Below are positions 5,750 to 20,940 of a stretch of DNA of 64,000 nucleotides, in pieces. How positions within the stretch are numbered: position 1 is the first letter of the stretch; each line of letters starts with the position of its first letter. The notes under the pieces were generated by a model, which was given only the letters and a program-made list of their open reading frames with translations, was not told the origin of the DNA and did no database searches. The stretch covers positions 491-64,490 of the forward strand of contig JAFQMS010000017.1 in the NCBI GenBank assembly GCA_017396145.1. The letters are read 5' to 3'. Both the position numbers and the translations under genes were made by a program. This DNA comes from Lachnospiraceae bacterium. Lineage in GTDB: Bacteria > Bacillota > Clostridia > Lachnospirales > Lachnospiraceae.

Positions 5750-8700
5750 TTAATTTTTGAATTTTTCAAGTTCGCTTTTGATACTTTGTAGTTCATCTAA
5801 AGCTTGGTGTAATGCGATACAGTTAGTCAAATGCACATTACTACTTTTGAATACATAGTTAAGTATGTTATCTTTTAGTAATTTTGCTAATGCTTCGTTA
5901 CATTGAGGATTATAACTTGAATTTGAAGTGAAATAGTCAGGTCTTCCAGGTTCAGCAAATAGTGGGAAAGCATCTATTTTAGTTATTGGTTTTTCAATAG
6001 CATCCCATTCTAGCCAATGTGGTCTAGGAGCAACAAGTTCGTGTCTCCATCCGCTTATTAGAATTATGACAATATCATTTTCGTTATATTCAATGCTTTC
6101 CATAAGTTTTAATGCTCGAGAGTACTCTGCTATTTGCCATGCGTTTGCATAATTAACTACCCTATATGGAATATCTAACATTTCCTGTAATTTTGAAGCG
6201 ATAGTATCTTCATCTTTAACACCACATCCGAGGGTGATAATGTCACCAAAAAGATAGATGGTACCTATATACTTATCAGGGGCATTAACTGTCTTTCTGA
6301 AGCCATTCTCTATGTTGAAGTAATTACCTTTAACATCTTTCATGCGCCAATTTCCATCACTTTGGTCTTCATAGAAATCTGGCTTTTTAAAAACTTCGTT
6401 GATTACGTCGATGTCGAATTCTTGTAGTGGCTTAGGAAGTTTTTCTTTGGATTTATTCGCTGTTTTTATTATTGAAGAAACGTTAACATCTGTAAGTAGT
6501 TTTTCTGATGATGTTATGTTCCTATATGTCATAGCATAGAAACGTTTGATTTTTCCTGTACGTACAGCAAAAACCTTTGGCATATCCTTTTTGTTTTTAA
6601 GTAGGCATGTAAAATAATTCTTTGTTTTTAATTCGCAGAGAACTTTGTTGAGATAATGAATTTTGCATTTATAGTTCTCAAACATTGATTTGAAAAGTTT
6701 TATCTGATCGTGATCAAATGCAAATAAAACGGTATCGGTGCTATTTATATCTAGTTTACCGTTGATGTGGTTTACAGGAAATCTTTGATAATTTCCGTAG
6801 TGTAATTCAAAAAGATGGTCAGCGGTGTAAACTGCCTTAATCTTTAGAGGTGTTGCTTTTAAAAGAGGAAAAAGGACTGCACCGGTTCTTTTATCAGTGA
6901 ACAAAATGATTTCATTGATACCCTTATCTAGAAAAAATGAGGCTGGATTCACGCCCATAGCAATCAGTTCAGACAATAACATTTGGTTAGATAAGGTGAC
7001 TTCGTCCGCTTTTTCATTGTCTGAAATATACTGGTTATATCCCGCTTTTGCAAGAGTATAGTTTTCATATTTGTCATTGAAGAATTCTGAAATTCTATAT
7101 TTGCCGTACTCGATAATACTACTATTGCACTTGTATTTTTCGTTAGTAGTTTTATTGACAATATTTACTACAACTCTCCATTTACCAATCTTGTTTACAT
7201 TGAATTTGAGAGTGTTGTCATCTGAATAAGATGTGGTGTTTTCAATAAATCTGTCTCTAACAATAGTGAAAGAGTATTGGTAATCTTTGGCATTATCTAA
7301 GGTTACTTCACAATAATATTCGCCATTGGTTATGCAACTTGATATCTTTACATCACCCAAAGGAACTATTTTCTGAGTAACACAGGATGCTCTGCTTTCC
7401 AAATCTTCATGAATCTTCTTTGCAGCAGCTTCGTGTTGAACACTTCCGAAAATATGGTTGAGGATATCATCTGCAAGCATGTTGCCGATGGCTCTGTTAT
7501 AATGATTACTTACAGTATCAAAGAAGTCTGAACTTTCTTTTGCATATTTTCTTATGTCTATGATATATACGTTATTATGATTTTTTGCAAGTTTTTCTGC
7601 AACCTTGTTTAATTCAATGCGCTCATAGTATTCTTGATTTTTGCCAAGAGATGGAAACTCTACTTCTGGAACAGTCATCAGTAAGAGTTCTGTGCCGTTT
7701 GGAAGGTTATCTAACAAATATGAAAGTTCAGATTCTATATCATCACAAGTTACTTTTTCTCTTTCATATTCGTCAAGCATTTCAGGTAAAACATCATTTT
7801 TGGTTAAAATGTTTCTCATATAAAAGCATTTGTTGGTGATTTTAGATGTATATTTCCAGGTTGATAATTCGCCATCTAATGTAACGAAAACATAGCCTGT
7901 CTGATCACTAAATATCTCACTATCAAAAGTGTATCGAGAATCAAATAGTCGAATCTTACTTAACCAATCATTTAGTGTTTCGGCATCCTCTCGCTTTGTT
8001 ACCGCTAAGTTCAAAATTGAGGGTCCCGGATCCATCTCTGAGAATCTTTTTTCTTTGAGTTTTGGTTCAATATATGCCCAAACAGGTCGTAAAGGGCAGG
8101 TTCCATAGGCGATAAACTTTTTCATATCAGTAAAGTTATTGATATCTTCATCTTTAGAATCTCTATTTATGTCCTGATTAATCCACGCAGGTCTGACGCC
8201 CTTTTCTAAATTGACTGCTACATCGCCAACTACAGTTAATTTAGGATATCCTAATTCAGAATAAAGCCATTGTTCAACTCCCATACCAAGTATACGACAT
8301 GAGAGTACAAGTTGTAGTGCTACACCGTCTTTAACGGCATAACAACCTACGATACCGTGATCGCCATATTTGTCATGTACTTTGACATATCCGCTTTTGA
8401 TAGTTGGGTCAGTAAATATTGCAGATACTTCTTCTATGGTAATTCTGTCTTTTGTATAGTTAAGTTGGTTGTTTCTGTGTATCATTTCATGAATACGTTC
8501 GATGCAATCTTGGCATTGTGTAACTAGTTCTACTTGAATATCAGATTGAAACAAGAAGGCTTCATTAGACGAACTACTTTTTCGTTCAGCAGTTTGTTTT
8601 TCAAGTATTTTGTATTGGTTTAATCTAGAGTGTGAAGAATCATCTTTGCCTTCAAAAGCGGATTTTTCAGTTATGAGTAATTGAGATAATTCTTCTGGAA

Positions 8701-19350: not shown

Positions 19351-20940
19351 ATGAGTAATTTTAAGATTCTTGATTGTACATTAAGGGACGGAGGTTATGT
19401 TAACGACTGGAACTTTGGAAAAAAAACAGTAGTAAAAGTATTATGTGGTCTTGCAAATGCAGGGATTGATATTGTTGAGATTGGTTTTTTATCAGAGTGT
19501 CAGTATGATAAGAATAAAACTGTTTTTAACAGCATTTCACAAATTGATGAATTACTACCTAATCAGAGTTCATGTAAATATGTGCTGATGATTGCCTTAG
19601 GGGAGAAGGAAATCGCATGCGAGAACGTGCCTTTAAGAAATGGTGGGCCTATATGGGGAATAAGACTAACATTTCATAAGAATGAAATAAAAAGAGCCTT
19701 TGAATATGCGAGTGATTTGATGGACAAGGGATATGTGGTATTTATGCAGCCCATTGGAACGGTAGCGTATAAAGAAGATGAGTTTTTACACTTGATAGAA
19801 AAAATTAATTGTTTAAAACCGTATGCGTTTTCTATAGTGGATACTTTAGGAAATATTACTGCAAACGAGCTTATTAGGTTGTTTCGTATGGCAGATAAAA
19901 ACCTTGTAGAAGGGATTAGAATAGGTTTTCATGCACATAATAATCTTCAACTTGCGTTTTCAAATGCTCAAGAACTGATTAATGAGCATTCAGATAGAGA
20001 GGTTATTATAGATTCTTCTATTATTGGAATGGGAAGAGGAGCAGGTAATTTGTGTACAGAACTGATTGCCAGATACATGAATACCAAGTTAAAATCTAAT
20101 TATAATGTTACTGCTTTACTTGAGGTTATAGATAAATACCTTATAAGTATTCAGACGGAATTTACATGGGGATATTCAGTGCCATATTATATTTCTGCCG
20201 TAAATAATTGTCATCCCAATTATGCAACTTATCTTATGAATCTTCAAACTGTAAATGTGTCAGATATTGAAAAAGTAATTGGGATGATACCAGTGGAAGA
20301 AAGAACTGTATTTAATAAAAAGTGCATCGAAAACCTATATAAAGAGTATCAGTCACATTATGTAGACGATAAGGAAACAGTGTTTAAATTAAAAGGAATG
20401 TTTAAGGACAAAAATATGTTAATCCTTGCACCGGGAAGGACATTGGTTACTGAATCTGAGAAGATTTATAAATACATTGAAGAGAAAAAACCGTATATTA
20501 TAAGTATTAACTTTGTTAATGAAGAATATCCGATAAATGCAGTGTTTATTAGTAATCTTAAAAGATTTGATCTAATGGAGTTTGATGTGGAAGAAGAAAA
20601 GGAGTTAATAATTACGTCAAACATAGATGTTGCATTCTCAAGACAAGCGCATAAAATTAACTATTTAGATTACTTATGTAGCGATAGTAGAATAGCTGAT
20701 AATTCGGGAATGATGCTTATGTCATTGTTGCGAAAATGCGGGATTAAAAACGTTGTACTGGCAGGATTTGATGGATTCAAAGCGTCGTATAGAGATGATT
20801 ATTTTGAGAGAGGTTTTAATTTGAATGTAGAGACGGATGCATTATTAACAAAGACAAGACTTATTGGGGAACAGATAGAGATGTTTGGTAAAGACATGAA
20901 TATTCAGTTTTTAACTACATCCCAGTATGCAAAGAATTGA
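19351..20940 (+). CDS. HMGL-like (DRE-TIM) aldolase domain fused to an MptE/DUF115-like domain
   Basis: N-terminus has ILDCTLRDGGY and GFHAHNNLQLA (metal ligands of the pyruvate aldolase / carboxyltransferase fold). The C-terminal part (MLILAPGRTL...VVLAGFDGF) resembles MptE-like/Maf domains; that assignment is weaker. Confidence 0.75.
   Translation: MSNFKILDCTLRDGGYVNDWNFGKKTVVKVLCGLANAGIDIVEIGFLSECQYDKNKTVFNSISQIDELLPNQSSCKYVLMIALGEKEIACENVPLRNGGPIWGIRLTFHKNEIKRAFEYASDLMDKGYVVFMQPIGTVAYKEDEFLHLIEKINCLKPYAFSIVDTLGNITANELIRLFRMADKNLVEGIRIGFHAHNNLQLAFSNAQELINEHSDREVIIDSSIIGMGRGAGNLCTELIARYMNTKLKSNYNVTALLEVIDKYLISIQTEFTWGYSVPYYISAVNNCHPNYATYLMNLQTVNVSDIEKVIGMIPVEERTVFNKKCIENLYKEYQSHYVDDKETVFKLKGMFKDKNMLILAPGRTLVTESEKIYKYIEEKKPYIISINFVNEEYPINAVFISNLKRFDLMEFDVEEEKELIITSNIDVAFSRQAHKINYLDYLCSDSRIADNSGMMLMSLLRKCGIKNVVLAGFDGFKASYRDDYFERGFNLNVETDALLTKTRLIGEQIEMFGKDMNIQFLTTSQYAKN

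Follow-up and report, generated by a model that had tools for sequence, protein, structure and literature searches.

We analyzed a 64-kb window (the whole stretch of DNA examined; G+C content [GC] 0.35) from a Lachnospiraceae metagenome-assembled genome (MAG), and within it a block of nine open reading frames (ORFs) at 5750-20940 that includes genes for LicD-type transferases, a thiamine diphosphate (ThDP)-dependent carboligase, a cytidylyltransferase fusion, and an aldolase fusion. Proteins of the window are 100% identical to MBQ3061176.1 and MBQ3061180.1, and the same locus was found in three independent metagenome contigs. One gene lies on the minus strand and eight lie on the plus strand, diverging across a gap of 244 nucleotides (nt). 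Among the plus-strand genes, ORFs overlap at 11611/11636 and 12848/12861, and the remaining gaps measure 11 to 47 nt. The divergent gap contains the likely promoter of the plus-strand genes (9242-9269, +), a 12/12 match to TTGACA-16-TATAAT located 58 nt 5′ of the first LicD start, and the eight genes appear to form one operon.

Both ends of the block are marked by hairpins that resemble bidirectional terminators. The left one (5659-5702) is long and A/T flanked, with a 20-base-pair stem followed by a T run and an A-rich 5′ side; the right one (20968-20994), common to the block and the convergent pflA gene, is G+C rich, with 10 pairs, 6 of them G-C, followed by TGTTTTTT and with AAAA on the opposite side. 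These are the two best-scoring sites of a terminator scan that returned 16 terminator-like sites, versus 6.3 ± 2.6 in shuffled sequences. An earlier note, made by inspecting the sequence alone, had described the nine ORFs, their overlaps, and both terminators, all of which we recovered. It had also placed the block between housekeeping genes, and the flanks do encode the C terminus of methionyl-tRNA synthetase, an ABC transporter, PflA/PflB, TatD, and maltodextrin proteins. The impression that the block is richer in A/T than its flanks reflects a real difference: GC is 0.3295 in the locus and 0.352 in the remainder of the window, the locus ranks second lowest among 245 sliding 15.2-kb stretches, and mean gene GC is 0.330 versus 0.365 (standard deviation, 0.015). 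The difference is small, though, and GC at third codon positions (GC3) is nearly equal (0.277 in the locus and 0.289 in the flanks). Because GC3 is about the same as in the flanks, the low GC argues only weakly for a foreign origin, and we do not claim recent horizontal transfer on this ground.

A Pfam and NCBIfam run upheld most of the domain labels proposed earlier (FkbH, LicD, a weak LicD, TPP, CTP_transf_like, short-chain dehydrogenase/reductase [SDR], glycosyltransferase family 2 [GT2], and HMGL-like) and did not confirm two others, GT32-like and MptE-like. Genes for a priming transferase, a flippase, a polymerase, or an exporter of the TagGH type were found neither in the block nor in the rest of the 64-kb window, in agreement with the view that this is an accessory decoration locus. 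As the note had also observed, domains of phosphoenolpyruvate mutase, LicABC, and TarIJ are missing from the nine proteins.

Module A: five genes that travel together

The first five plus-strand genes (9327-16637), referred to here as module A, encode a LicD protein with a tetratricopeptide repeat (TPR)-like region, a LicD-fold paralog, the ThDP enzyme, the cytidylyltransferase fusion, and an SDR.

The ThDP enzyme (568 amino acids [aa]; 12848-14554, +) has the TPP_enzyme N, M, and C domains of the acetolactate synthase (ALS) superfamily and the GDG-(x)24-NN motif. Although its best NCBIfam matches are acetolactate synthase models (E=1e-118), it reaches 397 bits against TIGR00118, for which the cutoff is 538, and stays under the cutoff for all 25 ALS-superfamily models listed among the 53 matched; no gene for an ALS small subunit was found in the 64-kb window. 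The best match in the PDB is 5ahk (313 bits), which exceeds the best acetohydroxyacid synthase (AHAS), E. coli AHAS I (265 bits), by 48 bits; 8rph (JanthE, a YerE-like enzyme) is matched with 232 bits. We take 5ahk to be PpYerE, the ketone-accepting YerE homolog of Pseudomonas protegens, an identification that a literature search did not confirm. A 6-residue insertion and an RQQ(A/G)FQE motif are common to 5ahk and all module A ThDP homologs, and neither is present in E. coli AHAS I (6lpi). In sequence, the window enzyme is thus closest to the ketone-accepting carboligases of the YerE type and not to acetolactate synthases.

Directly downstream lies the fusion gene (429 aa; 14566-15855, +; CTP_transf_like plus GFO_IDH_MocA), whose product joins a TagD-like cytidylyltransferase domain (residues 1-126) to a domain of the Gfo/Idh/MocA fold (residues 128-429). 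The cytidylyltransferase domain aligns end to end with Bacillus subtilis TagD (1coz; E=1e-37, ∼50% identity) and keeps the HxGH and RTxxISS motifs, and R44 and K46 are invariant in its family. It scores 118.8 bits against the TagD equivalog model TIGR01518 (cutoff, 165.4), and the family departs from TagD/TarD at several conserved positions, such as R63 (replaced by G) and W74 (replaced by Q or E; Q in the window). The second domain is complete, with a template modeling (TM) score of 0.79 to 3e9m/4had when an AlphaFold2 model was searched with Foldseek; KijD10, a thymidine diphosphate-sugar ketoreductase, is in the top 10 matches. The GxGxxG loop is missing from this domain, where the sequence reads G-L-V-V-D-S-F, as is the EKP lysine, at which position the window has G-M-Q and homologs vary; the Pfam match begins at profile position 24. 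Another set of polar residues in the domain is invariant, and some function is therefore likely.

The two LicD-fold proteins differ in their motifs. The larger (769 aa; 9327-11636, +; PF04991, E=1e-36) scores 127.5 bits over residues 26-246, well above the cutoff of 22.6, and contains the motif PWDDDADLYM (DDDAD); it belongs to the PF04991 phosphotransferase family and is putatively catalytic. Its long C-terminal region is helical and has a weak TPR_19 match, and 760-aa homologs adjoin the cytidylyltransferase fusion in other loci. The paralog (422 aa when read from 11593; 11593-12861, +; probable start ATG at 11611) also exceeds the PF04991 gathering score, with 30.1 bits. At the DDDxD position, it reads FDVEI, and most of the ∼385-aa module A homologs read GVVLM or VFEIL; because the DxD motif is gone from most of the family, the paralog is likely a noncatalytic partner. 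In one metagenome copy of the locus (L001; loci of the metagenome samples are numbered with the prefix L), this LicD-like second gene is broken into a 214-aa ORF and a 198-aa ORF (L001:2284-3511), a state that fits relaxed constraint on the paralog. The last gene of the module encodes a classical SDR reductase (244 aa; 15903-16637, +; adh_short, E=8e-37) with TGxxxGIG and YxxxK motifs, and in module A loci its homologs (47 to 49% identity) come after the ThDP gene.

The TagD-like/Gfo-fold fusion (∼433 aa) is an architecture that occurs widely, one homolog alone being recorded on 242 contigs. We inspected the neighborhoods of three fusion homologs, and a metagenome scan added 80 loci. In all three neighborhoods, the fusion is accompanied by a LicD-TPR protein (∼760 aa), a LicD-like protein (∼387 aa), a ThDP enzyme (∼580 aa), and an SDR (∼245 aa); the five genes adjoin TagF/TagGH-type or Bac_transf-type loci, Blautia-like contigs among them, and their order is unlike that in the window. 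Fusions at least 41% identical to that of the window, with at least 7.8 kb of downstream sequence, were treated as the close clade (15 metagenome loci). Fourteen of these loci have both the ThDP enzyme (45 to 49% identity) and the SDR (47 to 49% identity), and all 15 have a LicD homolog, which in 12 aligns over a long stretch with the 769-aa LicD. By comparison, where the fusion is more distant (27 loci), the ThDP enzyme is absent throughout. The aldolase was sought in 85 loci with cytidylyltransferase-fusion homologs and was present in none. Thus, the ThDP, SDR, cytidylyltransferase, and LicD genes, which the earlier note had grouped with the aldolase, do travel together, but in these loci the aldolase does not travel with them. 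From this pattern of co-occurrence, we conclude that module A is a conserved and common cassette, predicted to act as one functional unit. Targeted full-text literature searches found no published work on it.

Where the ThDP enzyme is absent, the company of the fusion is different. The sister clade (L114-L168; e.g., L116:9983-15829 and L119:9075-15246) has the fusion without ThDP and SDR genes, next to TagF-type glycerophosphotransferases, GDPD, LicD, radical-SAM, and xylose-isomerase-like TIM-barrel proteins. When ThDP-linked and TagF-linked fusion homologs were compared, the conserved residues of the cytidylyltransferase domain were equal in both clades except at I20/L20, which argues for one substrate in both. 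The clade-specific substitutions all fall in the Gfo-fold domain (positions 161, 256-257, 362, 389, 398, and 411).

Module B: a reduced copy of a widespread aldolase cassette

The last three plus-strand genes (16667-20940; module B) have a separate history. The aldolase (529 aa; 19351-20940, +; PF00682; 3dxi, E=2e-31) is an intact fusion of an HMGL-like domain and a C-terminal alpha/beta domain. The N-terminal domain scores 71 bits against PF00682 (cutoff, 29), has D13, H194, and H196, which are invariant, and in model comparisons matches 3dxi, DmpG, and homocitrate synthase; it is a predicted HMGL-like DRE-TIM metallolyase of the pyruvate-aldolase type. Within this group, it falls into a 3dxi-like subfamily with 16 to 18% identity to BphI-type aldolases in a structural alignment. 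The C-terminal domain has the conserved motifs LAPG, FISNxKR, TSN, DNAG, and LAGFDGF. For an MptE-like (DUF115) identity there is no more than a hint, a match to PF01973 of 15.1 bits (cutoff, 34.6; E=0.02) over 30 residues. A PDB profile search with this domain gave a marginal SteA-like match (E=0.03), and Foldseek results for the full-length model were dominated by the N-terminal TIM barrel.

This fusion has thousands of full-length homologs of ∼530 aa. We sampled 80 genome loci with homologs 41 to 56% identical to the window protein and clustered the neighboring ORFs, counting partners in 79 loci. The sample covers Clostridia, Bacillus/Gottfriedia, and a few Bacteroidales, Melainabacteria, and Akkermansia MAGs. 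Directly 5′ of the aldolase, 74 of the 79 loci have a CTP_transf_3 gene, usually with an 8-nt overlap, and a 247-aa form of its product exceeds the NCBIfam cutoffs for a KdsB-type subfamily (NF009905). A HAD_2 phosphatase gene is directly 3′ in 48 of 79, and ∼42 loci encode one or two PF07388/PF07922-like (polysialyltransferase/GT52) proteins. Many loci also have a ∼580-aa GT2, an ABC-2 exporter pair, and an LCP protein. The ThDP enzyme, LicD, and the cytidylyltransferase fusion were found in 0 of 80 loci, a weak partial TagD-like match being the only hit. This gene content suggests a cassette for a Kdo- or sialic-like acid, putatively made by a synthase other than KdsA or NeuB. Targeted literature searches for the aldolase cassette and for 3DXI/BVU_2661 returned no relevant published work. 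The cassette also usually includes a ∼670-aa HAD-like protein; examples are found in L004-L083 (e.g., L019:497-11587, L016:497-12260, and L025:9256-12279).

Relatives closer to the window aldolase (58 to 63% identity) keep the CTP_transf_3 gene and a gene of the HAD family, which is whole at 58% identity and reduced to a 79-aa fragment at 63%. Neither partner gave a profile match in any of the six frames of the 64-kb window. The two other genes of module B also resemble parts of the cassette. The 295-aa protein (16667-17554, +), which the earlier note had called an orphan, has no direct Pfam match but is hit by a profile of the PF07388-positive neighbors of aldolase homologs (E=1.6e-12) and is therefore a homolog of the polysialyltransferase/GT52-like proteins. 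It is shortened, with large internal deletions, and has SASEE where its relatives have KPHPR (the KxHPR motif), and we describe it as a remnant. The GT2 protein (574 aa; 17579-19303, +; PF00535, E=2e-21) is 22 to 25% identical over residues 3-439 to the ∼580-aa GT2 encoded 5′ of the aldolase in many loci. It has a conserved C-terminal extension, and residues 201-574 gave no Pfam match at E<=5 and no PDB sequence match at E<=1.

Two contigs of a close relative, from one sample, offer a view of a less reduced state. One of them, L084, carries module A (proteins 63 to 80% identical), an orf295-like gene, a GT2 gene, an intact polysialyltransferase-like gene, and a second GT2 gene. On the other, L173, a CTP_transf_3 gene, of which the 3′ end is present, is followed by the aldolase gene (72% identity), a HAD gene, three extra genes, and then pflA, the right-hand neighbor in the window. 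This is a fuller version of what the window has at that chromosomal site. Nucleotide similarity between the window and L173 begins 19 nt 5′ of the aldolase start (window 19304-19350), and the matching stretch of L173 lies inside the 3′ end of its CMP-transferase gene. This similarity may be the trace of a CMP-transferase deletion or a conserved ribosome-binding region.

In gene content, then, module B is a cut-down copy of a widespread cassette, putatively of the CMP-ulosonic-acid type. The aldolase of the window must therefore rely on partner genes located elsewhere in the genome, or else it has been orphaned recently. The fuller cassette, predicted to serve a CMP-activated 3-deoxy-2-ulosonic acid, comprises the aldolase fusion, the KdsB/NeuA-type CMP-transferase, the HAD phosphatase, polysialyltransferase-like transferases, and a GT2. 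The relatives of module B share with the KdsA/KdsC/KdsB and NeuB/NeuA pathways and with polysialyltransferase systems a KdsB- or NeuA/PseF-like CMP-transferase, a HAD phosphatase, and PF07388/PF07922-like transferases, together with an ABC-2 exporter. Unlike in those pathways, the carbon-carbon-bond enzyme of module B is an HMGL-like DRE-TIM aldolase fusion and not KdsA or NeuB; the window, moreover, lacks the CMP-transferase and the phosphatase, and its sialyltransferase-like protein has lost the His-Pro motif.

An FkbH-like giant recurs in unrelated loci

The single minus-strand gene encodes a giant protein (1,110 aa; 5750-9082, -) with an FkbH/HAD-IIIC domain at residues ∼11-275. It scores 144.6 bits against TIGR01686, just under the cutoff of 146.65, exceeds the cutoff of TIGR01681, and has DLDET and SCRILG motifs. 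No Pfam or PDB match was obtained for the ∼800 residues from 300 to 1110, and no gene for an acyl carrier protein (ACP) was found in the locus. Full-length homologs (33 to 54% identity) sit in other polysaccharide loci that have neither module A nor module B, with genes for GT8, GT2, a 1,069-aa LicD, galactofuranosyltransferase-like proteins, and pyruvyltransferases as neighbors. The protein resembles FkbH, which forms glyceryl-ACP for polyketide extender units, over its N-terminal 275 residues, including the DxDxT and SCR(V/I)LG motifs; it differs from FkbH in its 800 extra residues, the lack of ACP and polyketide genes, and its setting in a polysaccharide locus. We treat it as a putative independent modifying enzyme that is not part of module A or B. 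Tandem FkbH-like giants (1,112 and 1,104 aa) were seen in L175:2-6682 near a 1,069-aa LicD and a GT2/TagF fusion, and a 642-aa protein of another assembly is 100% identical to 58% of the window protein.

A possible route to an extended CDP-linked polyol

Two groups of characterized pathways bear on module A. In the synthesis of yersiniose and erwiniose, sugars of Gram-negative O antigens, an ALS-superfamily ThDP carboligase and an NAD(P)H-dependent reductase (YerE/YerF and ErwI/ErwE/ErwF systems) likewise act on CDP-activated intermediates. YerE attaches an acetyl group, derived from pyruvate, to a 4-keto sugar linked to CDP, and the product is reduced by YerF (PMC9306805; PMC12247030); for erwiniose, the ThDP enzyme receives its donor, a 4-hydroxy-2-oxo acid, from an aldolase of the BphI type (PMC9306805). 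The locus differs from these systems in that it has no glucose-1-phosphate cytidylyltransferase, 4,6-dehydratase, or E1/E3; activation would instead use a TagD-type phospho-alcohol cytidylyltransferase, and transfer a LicD protein rather than a glycosyltransferase. Its host is a Gram-positive member of the Lachnospiraceae, and its aldolase is of another subfamily that elsewhere is unlinked to the ThDP enzyme. NTP_transferase, 4,6-dehydratase, and E1/E3 genes were absent from the five inspected module A loci, as well.

The second group comprises the routes to CDP-glycerol (TagD/TarD), CDP-ribitol (TarIJ), and CDP-arabinitol (AbpAB), with transfer by LicD- or TagF-type enzymes, in which a cytidylyltransferase and a reductase likewise feed LicD-family transfer to a wall or capsule polymer. 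In module A, by contrast, the cytidylyltransferase forms one protein with a Gfo/Idh/MocA-fold domain, and a ThDP carboligase is encoded alongside. Neither is known from a described CDP-polyol route, and literature searches brought up no such case.

Our preferred reading, held tentatively and with somewhat more doubt than conviction, is that the block is a composite accessory locus that decorates a glycopolymer of the wall or capsule and consists of three separately inherited units, in which module A rebuilds CDP-glycerol and LicD transfers the product. The TagD-like domain would make CDP-glycerol or a very close analogue, a product proposed because the domain is ∼50% identical to TagD and the same pocket residues occur in the TagF-adjacent sister clade. 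The CDP-linked glycerol would be oxidized to a carbonyl by the Gfo-fold domain or the SDR, the YerE-like ThDP enzyme would add a pyruvate-derived acetyl group to this carbonyl, and the SDR would reduce the resulting side chain, following the YerE/YerF logic. The expected product is a C5 branched or extended deoxy-polyol on CDP. LicD-TPR would then move the phospho-head group onto a glycan, assisted by the LicD-fold paralog, which is probably noncatalytic. All of these chemical steps are inferred; what is shown is which genes are present, how far they are conserved, and how their products are related in sequence.

Several considerations weigh against this proposal. The positions that diverge from TagD and the sub-cutoff score mean that the substrate may not be glycerol-3-phosphate. 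As it lacks the canonical GxGxxG loop and the EKP lysine, the Gfo-fold domain may not be a dehydrogenase, in which case the SDR would be the only clear catalyst for the oxidation step. The YerE-type acceptors known so far are all CDP-4-keto-3,6-dideoxyhexoses, whose biosynthetic genes are absent from the locus; the identity of the head group is purely our deduction. Since the analysis covered 64 kb of the genome, a CMP-transferase that acts on the aldolase product may be encoded outside this stretch. Finally, because the aldolase is intact and apparently cotranscribed, it is possible that it has been recruited to supply a 4-hydroxy-2-oxo-acid donor, as in ErwI/ErwE, but comparative support for such a role is nil across 165 related loci.

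The non-standard CDP-activated head group proposed in the earlier note fits the conserved cassette and is probable, but not as the product of one self-contained route. A single self-contained nine-gene pathway is not supported: the aldolase does not accompany the module A genes in other loci, its CTP_transf_3 and HAD partners are missing, and the FkbH-like protein recurs in unrelated loci. The carbon-carbon-bond enzymes that the earlier note called unusual follow a known logic, as an aldolase/ThDP/reductase trio has a demonstrated precedent in the synthesis of acyl-branched CDP-sugars (PMC9306805), although no head-group pathway that uses them has been described.

Alternative pathways

The main rival, which we consider unlikely, is a route at the phosphate level. 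Pyruvate would be joined to a phosphorylated aldehyde (e.g., glyceraldehyde-3-phosphate) in a reaction like that of 1-deoxy-D-xylulose-5-phosphate synthase, the SDR would convert the product to a 1-deoxypentitol phosphate, the TagD-like domain would make CDP-deoxypentitol, and LicD would transfer it. The enzymes present suffice for this and no oxidation is needed, which fits a Gfo-fold domain without cofactor motifs, and the scheme parallels the path from ribulose-5-phosphate through ribitol-5-phosphate to CDP-ribitol. A cytidylyltransferase that scores under the TagD cutoff, with several conserved positions changed relative to TagD/TarD, would also be in keeping with another substrate. On the other side, the cytidylyltransferase residues are essentially identical in the TagF-adjacent clade that lacks ThDP and SDR genes, and the nearest relatives of the ThDP enzyme use a CDP-linked natural acceptor. 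The final product would be isomeric with that of the CDP-level route and have the same mass.

We give a little less credence to the idea that module A moves plain glycerol-phosphate and that the ThDP enzyme and SDR, merely colocated with it, make an unrelated small molecule or substituent. The identity of the TagD-like domain to TagD and the presence of distant fusion homologs in ordinary TagF-type loci without ThDP and SDR genes are what this idea would predict. The contrast between the close clade (ThDP and SDR in 14 of 15 loci) and the distant clade (0 of 27) speaks against mere colocation, as do the constant gene content in the face of varying gene order and the Gfo-fold substitutions, which track the presence of ThDP and SDR.

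It is improbable that all nine genes form one pathway, with the aldolase providing a 4-hydroxy-2-oxo acid to the ThDP enzyme for a longer-chain head group. In its favor, CDP-sugars are known to acquire long acyl branches through the joint work of an aldolase, a ThDP enzyme, and a reductase (PMC9306805); the window aldolase is intact, and the eight plus-strand genes appear to be one operon. Nevertheless, the aldolase and module A never occur together in the 165 related loci, and module A is complete without an aldolase in Blautia-type loci. The aldolase is 3dxi-like and far from the BphI type, and in other loci it is nearly always accompanied by a CMP-transferase and a phosphatase, which are kept at the same site in a close relative.

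Least credible, and dismissed here, is that the ThDP enzyme serves branched-chain amino acid synthesis as an ordinary acetolactate synthase and lies in the locus by chance: the ALS models are its best NCBIfam matches, but it stays below TIGR00118 and all other ALS cutoffs, has no regulatory small-subunit gene or other ilv genes nearby, carries the 5ahk-type indel and the RQQ motif, and sits within a conserved LicD/cytidylyltransferase cassette.

Under the composite reading, the combination of TagD-type activation and LicD transfer with a YerE-like carboligase appears to be new, although the enzyme families are all known. One may go further and propose that module A, through ThDP-dependent carboligation of a nucleotide-activated glycerol derivative, makes a hitherto unknown CDP-activated C-branched or C2-extended polyol, that this is the first case of YerE-type carbon-carbon bond formation in teichoic-acid-style head groups, and that LicD installs the group on wall polymers of Lachnospiraceae abundant in the human gut (e.g., Blautia); we regard this more specific claim as possible but doubtful. 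If true, it would add a new wall substituent and a new class of physiological substrates for ketone- or aldehyde-accepting ThDP enzymes, which are sought as biocatalysts. Firmicutes of the gut carry surface glycopolymers that influence how phages adsorb, how the immune system recognizes the cells, and how they colonize, and little of the chemistry of these polymers has been described. The aldolase/CMP-transferase/phosphatase cassette represents a second, much larger uncharacterized set, found in many Clostridia and some Bacillaceae.

Neighboring genes

Left of the block, an ABC transporter is encoded at 2066-4460. We did not assign it as the polymer exporter because related loci have a ∼260-aa protein of the TagG/Wzm type, and the membrane protein here is a 463-aa protein of the ABC2_membrane_2/3/4 type. 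Two ORFs without a Pfam match flank this transporter (1350-2096, 248 aa; 4685-5659, 324 aa), the second of which directly abuts the left terminator.

To the right of the block, the gene for pyruvate formate-lyase appears to be split (21778-24172, -). The PflB ORF (22064-24172; 702 aa) has an atypical tail and stops before the glycyl-radical motif, and a separate 78-aa ORF (21778-22014) has the glycyl-radical motif RVSGY and shares 14 nt with the start of pflA. The split was also called in the metagenome copies L001 and L002. Farther along, 3′ of the maltodextrin genes, a Tad/type IV pilus-like set at 34428-45214 encodes a T2SSE ATPase and T2SSF, TadE-like, DUF5702, and FHA/DUF6382 proteins.

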